Origin: Acidimicrobiales bacterium
Lineage (GTDB): Bacteria > Actinomycetota > Acidimicrobiia > Acidimicrobiales > Ilumatobacteraceae
DNA length: 54,327 nucleotides
Assembly (NCBI GenBank): GCA_035550895.1
Contig: DASZOG010000163.1
Coordinates: 1-54,327 of the forward strand
Direction of reading: 5' to 3'
Under the pieces are notes generated by a model. It did not search any database. It was not told where the DNA came from and saw only the letters and a list, made by a program, of their open reading frames with translations. Below, one piece after another: positions 3,093-47,664 of this stretch; the first letter of the stretch is position 1, and the number at the start of each line of letters is the position of its first letter. The position numbers and the translations under genes are program-made.

Positions 3093-3671
3093 TCACGGGA
3101 GGGCGCCGGCGAAACCGAGCGCGAGGCGCACCAGGCGGTCGTGGCCGCCGGTCATCTCGGCCCGGACCGCGGTGCTGACCGCCTCCAGCGGCGTGACCCA
3201 GGCGACGTCGAGGGCCGACTGCGATGGCGCGCACTCCCCCGCGATCGGCACGAGGAACGCCAAGCTCACCGCGTGCTGCCGCGGGTCGTGAAAGCCGCTC
3301 ACCGTCGGATCGGGGAAGTACTCGACGACGGTGAACGGCGCCGGCTGAGGCGGCAGCTGCGGCCGACACACCGGGCCGAGGTCCTTGGCGATGTGGCGCA
3401 GCAGCGCCCGTCGGACCGTCTCGCCGTAGAGGATGCGGCCGCTGACCACGGCGCGGCTGATCGTGCCATCGGCCATCGCCCGCAGGAGCAGCCCGACGTG
3501 GGAGACCTGGCCGGCACCGTCGACGCGCACCGGCACCGCGTCGACGTAGACCATCGGCACCCGGCCGCGCACCAACTCCAGGTCCTCCGGAGCGAGCCAG
3601 CTGGTGTCGGTCTCCACGATGTCCACGCGCGCCAGTCTGACGGAAAGCCGCGCGCGGGACCGGAATCGCAT
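3093..3671 (-). CDS. NUDIX-fold / DUF4916-like protein
   Basis: ORF 3093..3860 trimmed to Met64 (ATG 3669-3671) because the upstream part looks non-coding. VYVDAVPVRVDGAGQVSHVGLLLR...GRILYGETVRRALLRH resembles DUF4916 NUDIX-like proteins. It sits 29 nt upstream of hutU on the same strand. Confidence 0.6.
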   Translation of the reverse strand: MRFRSRARLSVRLARVDIVETDTSWLAPEDLELVRGRVPMVYVDAVPVRVDGAGQVSHVGLLLRAMADGTISRAVVSGRILYGETVRRALLRHIAKDLGPVCRPQLPPQPAPFTVVEYFPDPTVSGFHDPRQHAVSLAFLVPIAGECAPSQSALDVAWVTPLEAVSTAVRAEMTGGHDRLVRLALGFAGALP

Positions 3672-3773
3672 CGCGGATGTGGAGGAGCTGTGGACGATGA
3701 GTGGAGAACGCGACCGATTCTGGGGATGGCCGAGAAATCCTGCGGATAACCCTGTGTATAGGCAAAATACTGC

Positions 3774-3802
3774 TTGACCAGGCACTTCGCGTCGTTCAGA
3801 GT
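3774..3802 (+). promoter_or_regulatory. sigma-A-like promoter candidate for the downstream RNA (TTGACC-N17-CAGAGT) with an AT-rich upstream patch
   Basis: TTGACC at 3774-3779, a 17-nt spacer, then CAGAGT at 3797-3802. It is preceded by the locally AT-rich tgtgtataggcaaaatactgc. No plus-strand CDS follows for more than 4 kb. Confidence 0.4.
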
Positions 3803-3808
3803 GTCCGT

Positions 3809-4196
3809 CAGCCGGAAGGTACGAGCGGTTCGGCGACGAGGAGGAGGCATTCGGGTCCACCGGCCCGAGCGCCCGATCCGGCGAGTCGGCCGGGAGTACC
3901 GGAAGGCAGGGTACGAGCCACCGGGTGGGGCTCCTTCGGGGGTTCTCACCGCTGGCATCGGGAGAGGTCTTCGGGCTTCGAGCGATGCCGGAGACCTCGG
4001 GGGCTGCCGGGGCGACCCGGGAGTTCTCGGGAGAAAAGGGCTCGCCCGCCGGAGTTTCGGCTCCGACGGGCGAGGGTGATCGATGCGAAGGCTACCAGCC
4101 GGGAGATCGATCGTGGTGGCATACGACCAGACGGGCTGCCCCGAGCAGCGGTCCGGCTCCGGCCGGGCTCGCCGCTCGGGGCGCTCTTCGTTTTGT
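3809..4196 (+). ncRNA. candidate ~390-nt structured non-coding RNA, class unknown
   Basis: Lies in a 616-bp gap (3672-4287) whose six-frame ORFs are all Arg/Pro/Gly-rich junk. It has a promoter-like element upstream and a hairpin plus T-tract at the 3' end. Stems: 3806-3838; 3954-3960/3983-3989 enclosing GAGGTC-UUCG-GGCTTC; 4041-4074 (13 bp); 4078-4084/4106-4112. The motif CCGGAAGG..GTACGAGC is duplicated (3812-3826, 3899-3918). Confidence 0.45.
4138..4196 (+). terminator. intrinsic-terminator-like hairpin followed by a T-rich tract
   Basis: GCCCCGAGC (4138-4146) pairs with GCTCGGGGC (4174-4182), with an inner CCGG/CCGG helix. It is followed by gctcttcgttttgtg. The T-tract is present only when read on the plus strand. 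Confidence 0.5.
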
Positions 4197-4287
4197 GGGG
4201 GAAGCGCAACGGAGCGCTGACCGCGTCTTCCGGAGCGCGTCGCGGTGTGCCGGGTCCACCACCCTCGGGACACCGCGACTGCGCCGG

Positions 4288-4821
4288 TCACCAGACCTCC
4301 CCGGCCCGCCAGTCGCACGTGATGCCCGCGGTGAGATCGAGCTCGCCGGTGCGCGCGGTGCGCAACACCATCACTCCGCCGTCGTCCTCCGGCGTCCGCG
4401 TCCGACCCCCCGGCGCATCCACGAACGTCGGGCCGAGCCAGTGCTCCCAACCGAGGCGGGCGTAGAGCTCGGGCACGTCGGCCGACAGCGCGCCCAGCGC
4501 GTGCTCGGCCCGGATCGCCTCCCCGGCGGCCTGCATCACCCGGCTGGCGTACCCCCGGCCACGGGCCGCTGGTCGTGTCGCGACGCCCTCCACGTAGCCG
4601 GTCGCCAACCGCCGCTCGCCGACGACCAACTGGCGCGGGACGATCGCGGCGTGAGCCACCAGCTCACCGCCGTCGCACGCCAGGACGTGGAGACCGCCGA
4701 CGGTGTGCTCCCAGTCCGTGCCGTCGAACCGGCCCGCGAAGGCCACCTCCAGCACGTGGCGGATCTCGGTCAGTGCCCCTTCCGCCAGCTCCCGTGTGGG
4801 AACGACGGAAACGACGGCCAT
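4288..4821 (-). CDS. aminoglycoside 2'-N-acetyltransferase AAC(2')-I-like GNAT
   Basis: ORF 4288..4863 trimmed to Met15 (ATG 4819-4821). AFAGRFDGTDWEHTVGGLH, GYVEGVATRP, LGALSA and the C-terminal CDWRAGEVW closely parallel mycobacterial AAC(2')-Ic as I recall it. Confidence 0.8.
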   Translation of the reverse strand: MAVVSVVPTRELAEGALTEIRHVLEVAFAGRFDGTDWEHTVGGLHVLACDGGELVAHAAIVPRQLVVGERRLATGYVEGVATRPAARGRGYASRVMQAAGEAIRAEHALGALSADVPELYARLGWEHWLGPTFVDAPGGRTRTPEDDGGVMVLRTARTGELDLTAGITCDWRAGEVW

Positions 4822-4890
4822 GCGGCCAGCTTCGCGCCGGTCAGGTGACGATGCCGGCGCCAACCGTGGCGTGTGCCGGGGGCCTCGCGG

Positions 4891-18837: not shown

Positions 18838-19892
18838 ACGAAGCGGTACGTGGTGTAGGGCGTCGACGCCGGCGGGCCGGGGGCCAGGTGGAGGACCGGC
18901 TGGGTGCCGAGCTCCATGACGAGCGAGCCGACGGTCATCCACGGCACGTCCGCGCGGCGCGGCACGGAGACCGGCGCCGTGGAGAGGAGCGCCTGGACGT
19001 CAGCGACTCCCGCCGCTTCGTGGTCGCCGGCCAGTCGGGCGTGGAGCACGCCGTACCGGTCGTGCGTCGTCGAGCCGGCGGGCGCCTCACCGATGTGACC
19101 CTCTACCGCAAGCGGATGATTCGTGTGCAACACGCAACGCGCTGACATCGACCACTCGACGACGTCGTCCTGCCAGCACTCCAGGTCGAGGAACCCGCTG
19201 CCGTCGCCGACGACGTAGTTCTGGCCCGTCGCGTGGCGGATGGCACGCAGGAACGCTGCGGCGTCCGCCAGCGAGCGGCGCGCCAGCGCGCCCCGCACGA
19301 CGTACGCCACCGGGAGCCCGTCGGGGCTGACCGGCAACGTCGGCAGCGAGTTGCAGCACACGGCGACGCCATCCCGGTTGAGGCCGTCGAAGCCGATCAG
19401 TCCCGCAGCGCTGAACACGAACGACTCGTGCTCGCGCCGCTCGTCGACGACGTGCAGCAGCACCTGAGTGCCGTCGTACGCGGTGGGCAGGTCCATGTTC
19501 TGGGCGACGATCGGCGCCTGTCCGGGCTCGTGGACGGCGAGGCTCGAACACTGCTCGACCGGCGCTCTCCCGGACGGGGCGCCCCGCCGCTGCTCCGCGA
19601 ACCACCACTGCTCGTCCATCAGCTGGTACGCACGAATCTCCGCCGGGTCGGCGGCGGCGCCCTCGGCGATGCCCGCCACCTCCGCCGCCAGCTCTGGCGT
19701 CCACCGCTGGATCGCCTCGTCGAAGCGGGTGGCGGCGAGCAGCTCGGCGAGGAAAACGTCCACGTCCGCGCCGGCGGCCGCGGCGAGGTGCGCCCGCCAG
19801 CGGTCCAGTCCGTTCGCGATGTCGGCGCGCAGCTCCTCGCCGTGTGCTCGGCCGCGGTCGCGCGCCTCGCCGGCGACGCGGACGACCCTCAC
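18819..19892 (-). CDS. C45 family peptidase / acyl-CoA:6-APA acyltransferase-like Ntn hydrolase
   Basis: GTG 19890-19892 overlaps the transporter stop (GTGA). EQCSSLAV, APIVAQNMDL, SAAGLIGFDGLNRDGVAVCCNSL, ATGQNYVVGD and CVLHTNHP fit the C45/AAT family. The track ORF 18819..20735 over-extends. Confidence 0.75.
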   Translation of the reverse strand: MRVVRVAGEARDRGRAHGEELRADIANGLDRWRAHLAAAAGADVDVFLAELLAATRFDEAIQRWTPELAAEVAGIAEGAAADPAEIRAYQLMDEQWWFAEQRRGAPSGRAPVEQCSSLAVHEPGQAPIVAQNMDLPTAYDGTQVLLHVVDERREHESFVFSAAGLIGFDGLNRDGVAVCCNSLPTLPVSPDGLPVAYVVRGALARRSLADAAAFLRAIRHATGQNYVVGDGSGFLDLECWQDDVVEWSMSARCVLHTNHPLAVEGHIGEAPAGSTTHDRYGVLHARLAGDHEAAGVADVQALLSTAPVSVPRRADVPWMTVGSLVMELGTQPVLHLAPGPPASTPYTTYRFVQPAVK

Positions 19893-29853: not shown

Positions 29854-31163
29854 CGACGACCGCCACGCGCCCGAAGCCGCCGCGCTGGGGGCCGCTCGGC
29901 CTGGTGCCGGCGCTCGTGCTCGTGTCGGTGAACTTCCTCGACGGGATGGAGGCGAACTTCATCCCCGGCGTGCTGTCGCTGCTGCAGGACGAGTGGGGCT
30001 TCGGCGACACCGCCGCGGGCGCGATCCCGACGGCGATGGCGATCGCCGGCCTGCTCGTCACACTTCCCGCCGGCTACCTCGCCGATCGCGTCGTCCGCAC
30101 CCGCCTCCTCGCTGTCGTCGTCGCCTCGTGGTCGGTGTTCACCCTCGCCTCGGCGCTGGCCACCGCGTTCTGGATGTTCTTCGTCATCCGCGTCCTGCTG
30201 GGCACAGCGGCGCACGTGGACAACCCGTGCTCGTCCAGCCTGATCACCGACTACTACCCCGCCGCGTCGCGAGCGCGCGTCTTCGCGCTGCAGCGCGCCG
30301 CGTGGTACGTCGGCATCTCGCTCGGGATCGCCCTCGGCGGCGTGCTCGGCGAAGCGTTCGGGTGGCGCGCCCCGTTCCTCGTGATGGTCCTCCCCGGCCT
30401 CGTCGTCGCGCTGTTGGTGTGGCGGCTGCCCGAGCCCGTGCGCGGCGGCCTGGAGCCGCCCGCGGATGGAGCGCGGGCGACTGCAGCTGGGGTGGATGTC
30501 GCGCCGGTCCCGGCATCCGGGCGCGGCTGGCGCGCGCTGTGGGCGGATGCCCGCTCGCTGCTCGACGTGCCGACCCTGCGCCTGGTGTTCGTCGGCGTGG
30601 CAGTGGCGTTCGCCGGCTTCAACGGCCTCGGCTACTGGCTCCCCAGCTTCTGGGAGCGCCAGTTCGACCTCAGCGAGGGCGAGAGTGCAGCCCTGACCGG
30701 CGCGGTAGCCCTCGTGGCCACGCTCAGCGGGTCGTGGATCGGCGGCGTGCTCGGCGACCGGTGGCACGCCAGCCGCCGTGCCGGCCGCATCGACCTCGCC
30801 GCGGGCGCCCTGCTGATCGGCGGGGTCGTGCTCGTCGTGTCGTTGGCGATGCCGGTGCTCGTCGTGCAGATCCCGCTCCTCGTGGTCGCGGCGATCCTCC
30901 TCGTCTCGGGCATGCCGAGCTACGCCGCGGCCGTGGCGGACGTGCTGCCCGTCAGCAGGCGAGGCATCGGGTTCGCGCTCTTCACGTTCCTCGTCACACT
31001 CGCCAGCGCGCTCGGCCCGCTGCTCGTCGGCGTCGTCTCCGATCTCACCGGGTCGCTGCGTACAGCGCTGATCGCCGGCGCGCTCCCCTGCATCCCCGGC
31101 GCGTTCGTCCTCGCTCGCGCCCGCACCACCTACCCGGCTGACGCCGCGGCGATCAGCGGTTGA
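29850..31163 (+). CDS. MFS transporter
   Basis: GTG 29850 overlaps the crotonase stop (GTGA). ~12 TM helices. LPAGYLADRVVRTRLL and GVVSDLTGSLRTAL. The track ORF 29466..31163 over-extends. Confidence 0.85.
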   Translation: MTTTATRPKPPRWGPLGLVPALVLVSVNFLDGMEANFIPGVLSLLQDEWGFGDTAAGAIPTAMAIAGLLVTLPAGYLADRVVRTRLLAVVVASWSVFTLASALATAFWMFFVIRVLLGTAAHVDNPCSSSLITDYYPAASRARVFALQRAAWYVGISLGIALGGVLGEAFGWRAPFLVMVLPGLVVALLVWRLPEPVRGGLEPPADGARATAAGVDVAPVPASGRGWRALWADARSLLDVPTLRLVFVGVAVAFAGFNGLGYWLPSFWERQFDLSEGESAALTGAVALVATLSGSWIGGVLGDRWHASRRAGRIDLAAGALLIGGVVLVVSLAMPVLVVQIPLLVVAAILLVSGMPSYAAAVADVLPVSRRGIGFALFTFLVTLASALGPLLVGVVSDLTGSLRTALIAGALPCIPGAFVLARARTTYPADAAAISG

Positions 31164-37407: not shown

Positions 37408-38000
37408 CGGTGGACGCACAGCCACGGCGGGGCAAACGCCGGCCGTACCGGCGCGACGAGATCCTCGCCGCCGCCGTCAAGCTGTTCCACGAGCGCGGCT
37501 ACCACGCGACCGGGATGGACGACATCGGCGCCGAGGCGGGGATCAGCGGTCCGGCCATCTACCGCCACTTCCGCGGCAAGGAGGAGATCCTCGAGATCCT
37601 GCTGCTCGACGCGGCGCGCGCGGCGCTCGACGACGCGCGGGAGATCGTCGAGTCGGCGACGACGCCGCGCCGCGCGCTCGAGGGCCTCGTGCGGCTGTAC
37701 GTCCAGGTGATCGCGGCGAACCCGGCGCTGGCGTTCGTCGGAATGTACGAACGGCGGACGCTCAGCGCGGAGACCCGCGCCACGATGGACCGCCTCGAGC
37801 GTCTCCACCTCGAGGAGTGGCTGCACGCGTTGCTCCAGCTCCGGCCTCAGCTCAGCGATGCCGAAGCCCGGGTGATGATCCGGGCCGTGCACGGGCTCGC
37901 CGTGGCCGCGATCGTCTACCGCAGCGGGATCGAGCGCGCCGCGCTCGTCGAGCTCGTCGTGGCGATGACGATGAAGGCGCTCACGGTCACCCGCGGCTGA
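37404..38000 (+). CDS. TetR/AcrR family transcriptional regulator
   Basis: ATG 37404 overlaps the thiolase stop (ATGA). HTH: RRDEILAAAVKLFHERGYHATGMDDIGAEAGISGPAIYRHFRGKEEIL. Confidence 0.9.
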   Translation: MTVDAQPRRGKRRPYRRDEILAAAVKLFHERGYHATGMDDIGAEAGISGPAIYRHFRGKEEILEILLLDAARAALDDAREIVESATTPRRALEGLVRLYVQVIAANPALAFVGMYERRTLSAETRATMDRLERLHLEEWLHALLQLRPQLSDAEARVMIRAVHGLAVAAIVYRSGIERAALVELVVAMTMKALTVTRG

Positions 38001-43475: not shown

Positions 43476-43492
43476 TTGAGTATCCTCAAAGC

Positions 43493-44305
43493 GTGCCACC
43501 GTCGGCGTCGGCGATCGAGGTCCGGCCGCTCTCGCCCGCCGTCGGCGCCGCGGTCACCGGCGTCGACCTGCACGACGAGCTGGACGACGCGACGTTCGAG
43601 ATCCTGTGGTCGGCACTGCTCGACCGCGGGATGCTCGTGTTCCCCAGCCAGCACATCGCCGCTGCGGAGCTCGACGCGTTCGGCCGCCGGTGGGGTGAGC
43701 CGCTCGTCGTGCCGTACCTCGCGCCGCACGCCGTCGACGGGTACCCGGCGATCCTGCGCGTGACGAACATGGGCAAGCAGGGAACGCTGACCGAGAACTG
43801 GCACTTCGACTCGGCGTTCTTCGAGCAGCCGCCACCGCTGGCGATCCTCGCCGCCCAGCGCTTGCCCGACGTCGGCGGCGACACGATGTGGGCCAACCAG
43901 TACCTCGCCTTCGAGGCGCTGTCCGAGCGGATGCAGGAGCTCCTCGGCGGGCTGCGCGCCGCCTTCACGGGCACGCGCGTGGACGACGACGGCCAACGGC
44001 GTGACGTCGTCACCTACCACCCGGTCGTCCGCACGCACCCGCACACGAAGCGGCGCGCGCTGGCCATCGGGAGGATCGAATCGGTGCCCCACTTCGAGGG
44101 CATGACCGAGGCCGAGAGCCGCCCGCTGCTGCAGTTCCTCTACCAGCACGCCTCGCGGCCGGAGTTCGTCTACCGCCACCGGTGGGGGCAGGGCGACGTC
44201 GTGATGTGGGACAACCGGTGCACGCTGCACTACGCGATCCACGATTACGGCGACGAGCCGCGGGACCTGATCCGGATGACGGTCCTCGGCGAGCAGTGCT
44301 CGTAG
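43493..44305 (+). CDS. TauD/TfdA family Fe(II)/2-oxoglutarate dioxygenase
   Basis: GTG 43493 is the first start in frame after the upstream stop. IEVRPLSPAVGAAVTGVDL, NWHFDSAF (HxD), GGDTMWANQ, VVMWDNRCTLHYA. Confidence 0.88.
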   Translation: MPPSASAIEVRPLSPAVGAAVTGVDLHDELDDATFEILWSALLDRGMLVFPSQHIAAAELDAFGRRWGEPLVVPYLAPHAVDGYPAILRVTNMGKQGTLTENWHFDSAFFEQPPPLAILAAQRLPDVGGDTMWANQYLAFEALSERMQELLGGLRAAFTGTRVDDDGQRRDVVTYHPVVRTHPHTKRRALAIGRIESVPHFEGMTEAESRPLLQFLYQHASRPEFVYRHRWGQGDVVMWDNRCTLHYAIHDYGDEPRDLIRMTVLGEQCS

Positions 44306-44319
44306 CGGCGCGTGCTCGG

Positions 44320-46576: not shown

Positions 46577-46638
46577 GACGATTCAGTATACCGATTTGTC
46601 CGCGACCGGAGCGGACGTGGTCGGTAGTCTCCGGAGGC

Positions 46639-47664
46639 TTGAACGCTGGTTCGTGGGTGGTCATCGGGCTGGACAACGGGGGGACGTCGAACAACGCGAC
46701 GGTCCTCGACGCGTCCGGCCGGTTCCTCGTCGACCGGCTCCTGGAGACGCCGAGCCGCGTCCGCGAGGGTCCGTCCGTCGGAATCGAAGCGCTCGTCCTC
46801 GCCTTCGAGCACGTGCTCGCGGCGACGGGCAGGAAACGGGCGCAGGTGCGGGCCGTCGGGCTCGACACGCCGGGACCGGCGAGCGCGGACGGTGTCATCT
46901 CGTCCCGTGGCTCGACGAACTTCGCCCATCCCGCCTGGCCCGGGTTCGACGTGCGCGGCGCGCTCGAGACAGCGCTCGGCGTACCGGTCGTCTACAACAA
47001 CGACGGTAACGCTGCCGCCCTCTACGCGCACACCGTGCACTTCGGCGCGGACGCGGCGCACCGGTCCTCGATCTCCGCGATCGTCGGCACGGGTCTCGGT
47101 GGCGGCGTGATCGAGGCCGGCCAGATCGTCCGCGGAGCAGCGGGCATGGCTGGCGAGCTGGGCCACGTGCACATCCCGCTCCACGGACTACTGGAGGACG
47201 ATCAACCACTCCCCGGCTGCAACTGCGGCTTCGTCGGCGATGCCGAGAGCATCGCCTCGCTCACCGGCATCGAGAAGAACCTCCTGCCGTACTGGCTGAC
47301 GCGGTACCCGGACCACGAGCTCGCCCGGGTCGCGGATGTGTCCCGCGCCGCCCAACTCGTGCGCGGCCACGGCGAGCGCGGCGATCCGCTGGCGCGGCGG
47401 ATCTTCGAGCAGCAGGCGCAGGCGCTCGGGCGGCTGTTCACCATCGCAGCGAACTATTCGGATCCGGACGCCTACTTTCTCGGGGGCGGTGTCGTCGAAG
47501 CGCAACCGGCGTTCCGCGCCTGGTTCCTCGAACAGGTGCAGGCGCACACGCAGCTGCGCGCCGAGCAGGCGCGTGTCGCCCAATTCGCGCTGGTGCCGGA
47601 CCTCGACATGGCCGGTGCCCGCGGCGCCGCCCTCGCCGCCCGCGCCACCCTCGCGCAGGCCTGA
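46639..47664 (+). CDS. ROK family protein (sugar kinase or regulator-like)
   Basis: VVIGLDNGGTSNNATVLD, NDGNAAAL, VGTGLGGGVI, GELGHV and the Zn-motif variant GCNCGFVGDAE. The start is uncertain (TTG 46639 or GTG 46657). The track ORF from 46477 over-extends. Confidence 0.8.
   Translation: MNAGSWVVIGLDNGGTSNNATVLDASGRFLVDRLLETPSRVREGPSVGIEALVLAFEHVLAATGRKRAQVRAVGLDTPGPASADGVISSRGSTNFAHPAWPGFDVRGALETALGVPVVYNNDGNAAALYAHTVHFGADAAHRSSISAIVGTGLGGGVIEAGQIVRGAAGMAGELGHVHIPLHGLLEDDQPLPGCNCGFVGDAESIASLTGIEKNLLPYWLTRYPDHELARVADVSRAAQLVRGHGERGDPLARRIFEQQAQALGRLFTIAANYSDPDAYFLGGGVVEAQPAFRAWFLEQVQAHTQLRAEQARVAQFALVPDLDMAGARGAALAARATLAQA

Follow-up and report, generated by a model that had tools for sequence, protein, structure and literature searches.

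The stretch analysed here (the window) comprises 54,327 nucleotides (nt) of contig DASZOG010000163.1, from the Acidimicrobiales assembly GCA_035550895.1, and between two of its minus-strand genes it carries, at 3672-4287, a segment without a credible open reading frame (ORF). This segment very probably holds a genuine structured RNA gene, read from the plus strand and belonging to an unclassified family. The unit is conserved, non-coding and structured on the plus strand, and it is bounded by promoter and terminator signals; with these predicted signals, and with compensatory changes that are strand-specific, it has the features by which a non-coding RNA gene is recognised in general. An earlier note on this DNA had proposed a stand-alone plus-strand RNA of ~390 nt without a known family, running from a promoter to a terminator. 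The present results bear this proposal out, through conservation in four lineages, compensatory changes, the pattern of indels and the negative scans with Rfam and ARAGORN.

Relatives of the element were reached by walking out from homologues of the DUF4916 protein, which is encoded to its left, and then fetching the contigs. Nine contigs of the same species are 99.5-99.8% identical to the window. The whole block 3676-4285 is homologous in L001/L002 (the NCBI metagenome-assembled genome (MAG) GCA_975249275.1 and a Logan run), with 84% identity to the window, and L211-L214, from four JGI metagenomes, are 82% identical to it. Among the JGI samples in which the locus occurs are 3300036839, 3300049588 and 3300062131. 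L088 provides a partial homologue, as its contig ends inside the RNA. The four lineages are thus the window, L001/L002, L211-L214 and the partial L088. Along the locus, pairwise identities among the window, L001 and L211 are distributed as follows:

3096-3626: DUF4916 coding DNA, 79-87% identity
3627-3675: spacer at the DUF4916 start, 36-68% identity
3676-3802: upstream block, 82-92% identity
3803-3809: the 7 nt from the -10 to the RNA start, 29-86% identity
3810-3908: 5' arm, 81-89% identity
3909-4033: helices P6-P9, 76-85% identity
4034-4129: core, 95-97% identity
4130-4196: terminator, 81-90% identity
4197-4285: tail, 78-84% identity

Conservation collapses at both edges of the block, on the left in the poorly conserved spacer (36-68%) and on the right past ~4285, where homology is lost. 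Within the RNA, the core 4034-4129 (95-97%) is more conserved than the adjacent DUF4916 coding DNA (79-87%), even inside stems, which points to sequence-specific recognition.

The plus strand is also the one on which the structure is selected. Between 3800 and 4200 its predicted folding energy is -235.9 kcal/mol (z -5.4), and that of the minus strand is -190.4 (z -2.8); every sub-domain of the RNA lies below its shuffles, with z from -3.1 to -4.5. To avoid circularity, we predicted the fold from one sequence and scored the substitutions of another lineage on it. When the window fold of plus-strand 3810-4196 was applied to L001, 25-26 changed pairs were kept and 8-9 broken, for a null expectation of ~15-17 and 21-25, respectively. 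When it was applied to L211, 23 changed pairs were kept, 10 of which had changed on both sides, and 7 were broken (null: 16.1 kept, 24.2 broken and 1.5 double). In both the L001 and L211 tests none of 5000 shuffles broke as few pairs, and the reciprocal tests agree. Scored in the same way on a window-derived fold, the minus strand stays at the null level (10 kept and 25 broken, 9 kept and 26 broken). The one-sided changes are mostly from G-C to G-U, which are tolerated by the plus strand only. Across five sequences the consensus fold comprises 165 pairs, of which 96.9% are formed and 14 are changed on both sides, a number of double changes reached in 0 of 500 shuffles; slid controls gave 34-49% paired and 0-2 double changes. 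Syntenic relatives, to which the earlier note had pointed for a check, thus show both conservation, over four lineages, and compensatory changes specific to one strand.

This same consensus fold gives the following anatomy, in window coordinates:

3810-3908, plus strand: 5' domain, one long irregular arm (z -3.2)
3811-13/3905-07, plus strand: P1, followed by a symmetric GGAA/GGAA internal loop
3818-22/3896-3900, plus strand: P2, in which the pair 3820:3898 is U-A, G-U or A-U by lineage
3826-57/3862-93, plus strand: P3-P5, capped by a CACC apical loop
3910-3922 with 4115-4128, plus strand: P6, a predicted long-range helix, found in the minimum free energy (MFE) and consensus folds
3924-3950, plus strand: P7, a hairpin with a UUCG loop; 2 double and 2 one-sided pair changes, with 97.7% of cells paired
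3952-3991, plus strand: P8, a two-tier hairpin; of 16 pairs, 5 carry double and 7 one-sided changes
3996-4033, plus strand: P9, a hairpin whose GNRA tetraloop reads GCGA in the window and GCAA in L001; 1 both-side and 4 one-side changes, 98.3% paired
4034-4129, plus strand: near-invariant core, 95-97% identity in every pairwise comparison
4041-55/4060-74, plus strand: P10, whose changes are only G-U-compatible
4078-84/4106-12, plus strand: P11, invariant, with a conserved 21-nt loop GCGAAGGCUACNNGCCGGNAG

P8, made of GGCATCG/CGATGCC plus an inner hairpin, is the best-supported helix, and its loop is UUCG in the window and UUCG or UCCG in the relatives. In the 5' arm two more pairs, besides 3820:3898, are changed on both sides. 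P6 would probably close a multi-helix junction around P7-P11; all 11 of its 11 pairs are invariant, so that covariation neither supports nor refutes it. In order, the core consists of the junction GAAAAGG, P10, GGU, P11 and, with an AUA bulge in it, the 3' strand of P6.

Several of the structural elements drawn earlier from the window alone are recovered in this consensus fold, namely the helix 3954-3989, together with the UUCG-capped hairpin inside it, and those at 4041-4074 and 4078-4112. Others had to be given up or reinterpreted. A helix had been proposed at 3806-3838; its outer stem is disrupted in the relatives, and the long arm 3811-3907 takes its place in the 5' region. A pseudoknot or switch between GAGGTCT and AGACCTC is present in the window, but only 4 of its 7 pairs are kept in L001 and L211, and the hairpins that compete with it covary. 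The motif noticed as occurring twice (CCGGAAGG..GTAC) corresponds to the two strands of the P1/P2 helix, which flank the symmetric GGAA/GGAA loop. We also rejected a closing helix 3803-3809/4131-4137 that appeared in the first MFE fold: the changes of L001 are uncompensated in it, and the region lies upstream of the transcription start site (TSS) proposed below.

The signals that border the RNA, and the conserved DNA beyond them, are the following:

3676-3773, strand unassigned: conserved block, probably a divergent promoter or regulatory region, separating the RNA promoter from the DUF4916 start, 82-92% identity in three lineages
3774-3802, plus strand: predicted promoter, -35 TTGACC (3774-3779), N17 and -10 CAGAGT (3797-3802), conserved in four lineages
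4130-4199, plus strand: predicted intrinsic terminator, a 27-bp interrupted hairpin 4130-58/4161-89 followed by GUUUUGUGGG (-49.1 kcal/mol, z -4.5)
4197-4285, plus strand: conserved tail beyond the U-tract, 78-84% identity

The actinobacterial promoter consensus is TTGACN / TAGRRT, which TTGACC-N17-CAGAGT fits. When both strands of the 54-kb window were searched for TTGAC-N18-20-AGRRT, the element at 3774-3802 was the sole match, for 0.17 expected. The rightward promoter of the earlier note is thus the only match to the consensus in 54 kb, and it is kept in four lineages: the -35 TTGACC never changes, and only L088, with CACAGT, departs from the -10 sequence CAGAGT of the other three. Between the -10 and CAGCCGGAAGG, where conservation resumes, 6-7 nt (3803-3809) are variable (29-86% identity). 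Because this variable stretch separates the conserved -10 from the conserved CAGCCGGAAGG with sharp edges, we infer a TSS at ~3809-3810. At the other end, the hairpin plus T-tract previously read as a terminator on the plus strand also holds. In the hairpin 4130-4189 (z -4.5), which is 99.1% paired, 3 pairs show double and 5 show one-sided changes; the U-tract GUUUUGUGG comes next.

Upstream of the promoter, the block 3676-3773 contains three (T/G)GTGGA direct repeats placed exactly 11 nt apart (3679, 3690 and 3701) and a related CTGGGGATGG at 3721. An invariant TGCGGATAACCCTG lies at 3741-3754, next to an A/T-rich patch (3755-3771). The GTGGA repeats, CTGGGGATGG and TGCGGATAACCCTG (3676-3760) are kept in four lineages. 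We take the repeats to resemble same-orientation complements of DnaA boxes (TGTGGAYAA; 6-8 of 9 matches) or the direct repeats of response regulators. Together with TGCGGATAACCCTG, they probably make up an operator or promoter region that serves DUF4916, the RNA or both.

The tail contains a small hairpin (4204-07/4214-17) and a long one (4232-54/4263-85), and gives no overall covariation signal over 4197-4285. The long hairpin is nearly invariant, with 21 bp and a C-rich loop UCCACCACCCU. Its only stem changes lead to plus-strand G-U pairs (C-A on the minus strand), and it gives a weak CcsR1-like Rfam match (17 bits, E 0.27; gathering score 65). Homology among the lineages ends at its 3' foot (~4285), 2 nt short of the stop codon of the GNAT gene on the right. 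The tail may be a 3' extension formed by read-through, a processed piece, or a bidirectional terminator that would serve the convergent gene. On the minus strand, P10 (4041-4074) reads as a 14-bp G+C-rich hairpin followed by CCCUUUUCUC, on the 4034-4040 side, and was scored as terminator-like; this site might keep transcripts of the GNAT gene from running on towards DUF4916, or its presence may be coincidental.

The evidence speaks against a protein-coding role for the gap. The ORFs that cross it have no Pfam domain. A plus-strand ORF of 254 amino acids (aa) has a 99% match to itself as its only match among 5.8e9 protein clusters, and a minus-frame translation (205 aa) has 0 matches in 1.84e9 representatives. 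The statement that the gap is without a credible ORF therefore stands, since the crossing ORFs have neither a Pfam domain nor a protein homologue other than themselves; the check for a homologue that might betray a decayed gene likewise found none but self. Between the window and L001 all 11 of 11 indels are 1-2 nt long, and the substitutions show no codon periodicity (35/29/22 by phase). A 49-codon ORF starting at ATG 4083 was rejected, its frame changing between lineages in the alignment. In public annotations the RNA locus is spanned by 'proteins' of 254 aa, in L214 (2-766) and in the Logan contig P0121; these are spurious ORFs in G+C-rich non-coding DNA, without homologues.

The genes that flank the gap are:

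3096 to GTG 3626 or ATG 3671, minus strand: DUF4916 (NUDIX-like) gene, Pfam PF16262 (3e-72)
4291-4863, minus strand: AAC(2')-like GNAT gene, the right flank of the gap

Further left, beyond the DUF4916 gene, lies hutU. The DUF4916 start is probably GTG 3626 (177 aa) rather than ATG 3671, because the homologues have 178 aa and span just 90-92% of the 192-aa window ORF. The 15 extra codons of the ATG 3671 start (3627-3675) are not conserved (36-68% DNA identity), and metagenome annotations start the ORF at ATG 3671 (192 aa). With a start at GTG 3626 the gap would therefore measure 616-661 nt. The structure PDB 4KTB, linked to DUF4916, is that of an uncharacterised protein. In every lineage (window, L001, L088 and L211-L214) the RNA lies divergently upstream of DUF4916, which is the only neighbour conserved with it; the other flank is GNAT in the window, a truncated cysD in L001 and cysN in L211. 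In L001 this PAPS-reductase-family (cysD-like) gene, at 780-1157, encodes only 125 aa, whereas its L211 counterpart has 311; cysN is absent as well, which suggests that a deletion or rearrangement took place, its breakpoint lying ~230 nt from the RNA tail.

The search for more distant copies gave none. DUF4916 relatives at 76-78% protein identity (L003-L009) have no gap and no RNA homologue by nhmmer or by the covariance model R1. In L076, whose DUF4916 is 89% identical, there are just 92 nt upstream and these are not alignable to the RNA. For the 5' arm, R1 finds only the known copies. In genome contigs an exact 19-mer pattern had 0 matches, and CCGGAAGGNACGAN{60,90}CCGGAAGG had at least 120, all unrelated, with 117 of 122 inside ORFs and nothing from nhmmer or blastn. 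In metagenome contigs an 18-mer gave 66 chance matches; in viral contigs three patterns gave chance matches only, and among plasmids and phages blastn in distant mode found no homologue. The named relatives of the DUF4916 protein are Acidimicrobiales/Acidimicrobiia MAGs. On present evidence, the RNA family would be confined to one small uncultured clade.

Two of these pattern searches brought up sequences of other kinds. In the metagenome Ga0081539, an identical sequence unrelated to the RNA, which shares the 18-mer by chance, lies 15-150 nt from the ends of 17 contigs (L010, L018, L022, L025, L029, L031, L036, L037, L042, L043, L045, L051-L054, L060 and L070); this is the signature of a multicopy repeat, such as an insertion sequence (IS)-like element, breaking the assembly. 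Another 30 matches, to CCGGAAGGNACGA-N-CCGGAAGG, have an identical span of 91 nt and lie inside long ORFs, the listed loci being mostly Planctomycetota (L100, L103, L104, L112, L113, L118, L121, L126, L142-L144, L156, L159 and others). The segment they share is presumably a conserved protein-coding one, unrelated to the RNA.

We then compared the element with known RNA families. No Rfam model reached its gathering score anywhere in the 54-kb window; at E ≤ 10 the region 3500-4500 gave only noise, and at E ≤ 5 L001 and L212 gave nothing consistent. ARAGORN found no transfer RNA (tRNA) or transfer-messenger RNA (tmRNA). The earlier failure to assign the RNA by eye thus agrees with the Rfam scan, in which no model matched in the window or in the homologous loci, and the reported absence of RNase P, tmRNA, signal recognition particle (SRP) RNA and riboswitch cores agrees with both scans. 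The CCGGAAGG motif bears only a superficial likeness to the SRP helix-8 sequence.

The suggestion that the RNA might be Ms1/6S-like does not survive as a statement of family membership, as there is no model match, no rod with a central bubble and no Ms1 synteny. The 6S model RF00013 had no match in the window at its gathering score, in 3500-4500 at E ≤ 10 or in L001 and L212 at E ≤ 5. As an abundant stand-alone regulatory RNA with its own promoter and terminator, 6S RNA, which binds the sigma-70/SigA holoenzyme and templates pRNA, is comparable to the element. However, 6S RNA is a single rod of ~180-200 nt, an interrupted hairpin closed by pairing of its 5' and 3' ends, whose large central bubble mimics an open promoter, whereas the RNA described here has ~385 nt and a separate 5' arm, and its at least four independent hairpins (P7, P8, P9 and the terminator) are incompatible with one rod.

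Ms1 (MTS2823 / scr3559), found in Mycobacterium, Rhodococcus and Streptomyces, comes closer, since it too is long, G+C-rich and highly structured, with its own strong promoter and no downstream gene. It binds RNA polymerase (RNAP) core from which the primary sigma factor is missing, and accumulates in stationary phase. Ms1 has ~300 nt and binds the RNAP core; copies from different genera have no BLAST similarity but a conserved position, with a HAD-IB hydrolase / 'inhibition of morphological differentiation' gene on one side and an oxidoreductase gene on the other, and Rfam includes Ms1 but finds it only in close relatives of mycobacteria (PMC9130861). The lack of a match to the Ms1 model in our scan is thus a weak test. 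The flanking genes here are DUF4916 and GNAT, cysD or cysN, not a HAD-IB hydrolase and an oxidoreductase, and the ~385-nt RNA is an arm plus a cluster of hairpins with no large central bubble, whereas Ms1 has a 6S-like bubble and short end hairpins.

CoRP, a 516-nt RNA of Corynebacterium only, binds both RNAP core and holoenzyme (PMC11077062), and CoRP and Ms1 are each restricted to a lineage and have no mutual sequence similarity (PMC9130861, PMC11077062). Like CoRP, which is genus-restricted, the element is a long structured intergenic RNA unrelated to 6S or Ms1. CoRP is thus an example of the large RNAP-associated RNAs that single actinobacterial lineages have of their own. Unlike the element, CoRP is found between tRNA genes, and its cleavage yields pieces of 318 and 198 nt; the comparison is by description and not by sequence. 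The raiA, OLE, ROOL, GOLLD and HEARO/IsrB omega RNAs share with the element a multi-helix architecture of several hundred nt, conserved junctions, GNRA or UNCG loops and a function that is not obvious from context. None of their models matches, however, and they span many genera or phyla, whereas the four lineages known here are 82-88% identical; nor does the locus have an associated ORF such as IsrB or HNH. The likeness to small RNAs of the 6C/CcsR type, that is the C-rich apical loop of the tail hairpin and its weak CcsR1 match, concerns ~50 nt past the terminator, and the main body has no such loops. A riboswitch or leader is not what we find either: the next genes (GNAT, cysN or cysD) are convergent and vary by lineage, and no riboswitch model matches.

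How, then, do other explanations fare against a plus-strand structured RNA gene? The element might act as a trans-acting base-pairing small RNA (sRNA), or as a dual-function RNA, with a conserved loop such as UCCACCACCCU pairing to G-rich ribosome-binding sites in the 6C/CcsR manner and the rest serving as scaffold. The tail hairpin 4232-4285, nearly invariant, with its C-rich loop and a CcsR1-like match of 17 bits (E 0.27), is what such an RNA could look like; its stem changes keep plus-strand G-U pairs, and the promoter and terminator suit an sRNA. We nevertheless consider this explanation unlikely, as ~390 nt with at least 10 conserved helices are far more than base-pairing sRNAs need, the C-rich loop lies beyond the U-tract terminator, and the predicted duplex with the 5' region of DUF4916 was no better than those of shuffles and no target was identified. 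It is much less probable still that the structure belongs to the minus strand, where it would control DUF4916, downstream of the GNAT or cysN gene, as a long 5' leader, an element of riboswitch type or a terminator region that allows read-through. Covariation there is at the null (9-11 changed pairs kept versus 24-26 broken), the many conserved plus-strand G-U pairs would become C-A, the fold is 45 kcal/mol weaker, the conserved promoter faces the opposite way and no riboswitch model matches. These observations outweigh the facts that both flanking genes are on the minus strand, that the element is always upstream of DUF4916 and that the 14-bp P10 hairpin followed by CCCUUUUCUC looks terminator-like on that strand.

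A decayed or frameshifted protein gene, or a small conserved ORF hidden in the gap, seems to us hardly credible. Long open frames do cross the gap, as is usual in DNA of 70% G+C, and 254-aa ORFs have been called in P0121 and across the L214 homologue, but no Pfam domain was found, the only match in sets of 5.8e9 or 1.84e9 proteins is self, the indels (11 of 11) are of 1-2 nt with no codon periodicity, and the ORF from ATG 4083 shifts frame; moreover, the strong purifying selection is unlike that of a pseudogene. Finally, the conservation could be that of the DNA itself, as a cluster of protein-binding sites or palindromes (an array like DnaA boxes with an AT-rich patch) or a remnant of a mobile element. 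Such an element would account for the 11-nt-phased GTGGA repeats and the TGCGGATAA upstream of the promoter, which are all conserved, and TGCGGATAA is an 8/9 match to the complement of the E. coli DnaA box. It would also suit a core that does not vary even within its stems, and a 3' neighbour that differs by lineage. These repeats, however, are not part of the transcribed unit, and a divergent promoter region would explain them. Palindromes acting as DNA would not tolerate the one-strand changes from G-C to G-T that dominate here, and there are no terminal repeats, transposase or extra copies in the window and no matches in plasmid, phage or viral collections. We therefore regard this explanation as highly improbable.

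Several observations weigh against a plus-strand RNA gene of this kind. The RNA is absent from relatives whose DUF4916 is 76-78% identical, which would be unusual for a core housekeeping RNA, and the searches made found no homologue beyond the small clade. Only three full-length independent lineages are available (82-88% identical), and the covariation comes from few events; P1, P6 and P11 never vary, and the multi-helix junction is a prediction. The -10 hexamer fails an E. coli-type promoter scan. A simple terminator model does not account for the ~90 nt of conserved tail past the U-tract, and the RNA's TSS, 3' end and stability are all predictions from sequence. Nor does the fold show the rod and central bubble that are typical of 6S and Ms1.

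With a plus-strand RNA gene as the favoured explanation, we propose the following course. The housekeeping-type actinobacterial promoter TTGACC-N17-CAGAGT would start transcription near 3809-3810. The resulting RNA of ~385 nt would fold into the 5' arm P1-P5, with its two-fold symmetric GGAA/GGAA loop, and then into the UNCG- or GNRA-capped hairpins P7-P11, which P6 probably gathers around the near-invariant core. Transcription would stop at the intrinsic terminator, near 4195, and part of the RNA might extend into the 90-nt tail by read-through or processing. Its size, its many capped helices, the conservation of its core and the lack of a downstream gene suggest that the RNA works folded, by binding a protein partner, rather than in the manner of a leader or simple antisense RNA. 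The lack of a downstream gene argues against a leader, and the convergent neighbour, which is not conserved, argues against a dedicated antisense RNA.

Bacterial RNAs of more than ~300 nt with many conserved helices are rare, and those that have been solved are usually ribozymes, ribonucleoprotein (RNP) scaffolds or global regulators. Actinomycetota, to our knowledge, are without canonical 6S and carry Ms1 or CoRP, and we know of no RNAP-binding RNA described for Acidimicrobiia. The most likely specific role, by analogy, would be that of an abundant RNAP-binding regulator like Ms1 or CoRP. It is ranked first because these are the known actinobacterial RNAs of such a description, and it is still a rather doubtful assignment. 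A role as partner of the NUDIX-fold DUF4916 protein ranks second, and other RNP or catalytic roles come after. A functional link between the RNA and DUF4916 is possible, the evidence being an adjacency conserved among close relatives. The likeness to Ms1 and CoRP is one of kind, not of descent. That the RNA founds a new class of large structured RNAs, either as an independent RNAP-binding RNA or as an RNP or catalytic RNA with DUF4916, is conceivable, and we advance it tentatively. If so, it would be an RNAP-binding RNA to follow 6S, Ms1 and CoRP, specific to an uncultured Acidimicrobiia-like clade, or else a DUF4916-partnered RNP or catalytic RNA acting, for instance, in RNA 5'-end or nucleotide metabolism. 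The candidate has clear limits, set by predicted promoter and terminator signals, and combines a supported secondary structure with a near-invariant core of 96 nt, which makes it a concrete target for further work. Its constant pairing with the uncharacterised NUDIX-fold DUF4916 (PDB 4KTB) is a testable lead on that protein family. Its value is limited by the narrow distribution so far, four closely related uncultured lineages.

The gap had also been described as by far the longest in the window without a credible ORF. This could not be verified, as several other stretches of 560-1050 nt have no Pfam-identifiable gene and the gene caller used here, based on G+C at third codon positions (GC3), is too crude to rank all intergenic gaps. 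With this finder the Pfam-less stretches are 18838-19888, 43476-44319, 29854-30631, 46583-47187 and 37408-37974, and no Rfam match was found there. These five stretches may be orphan genes or more non-coding regions.

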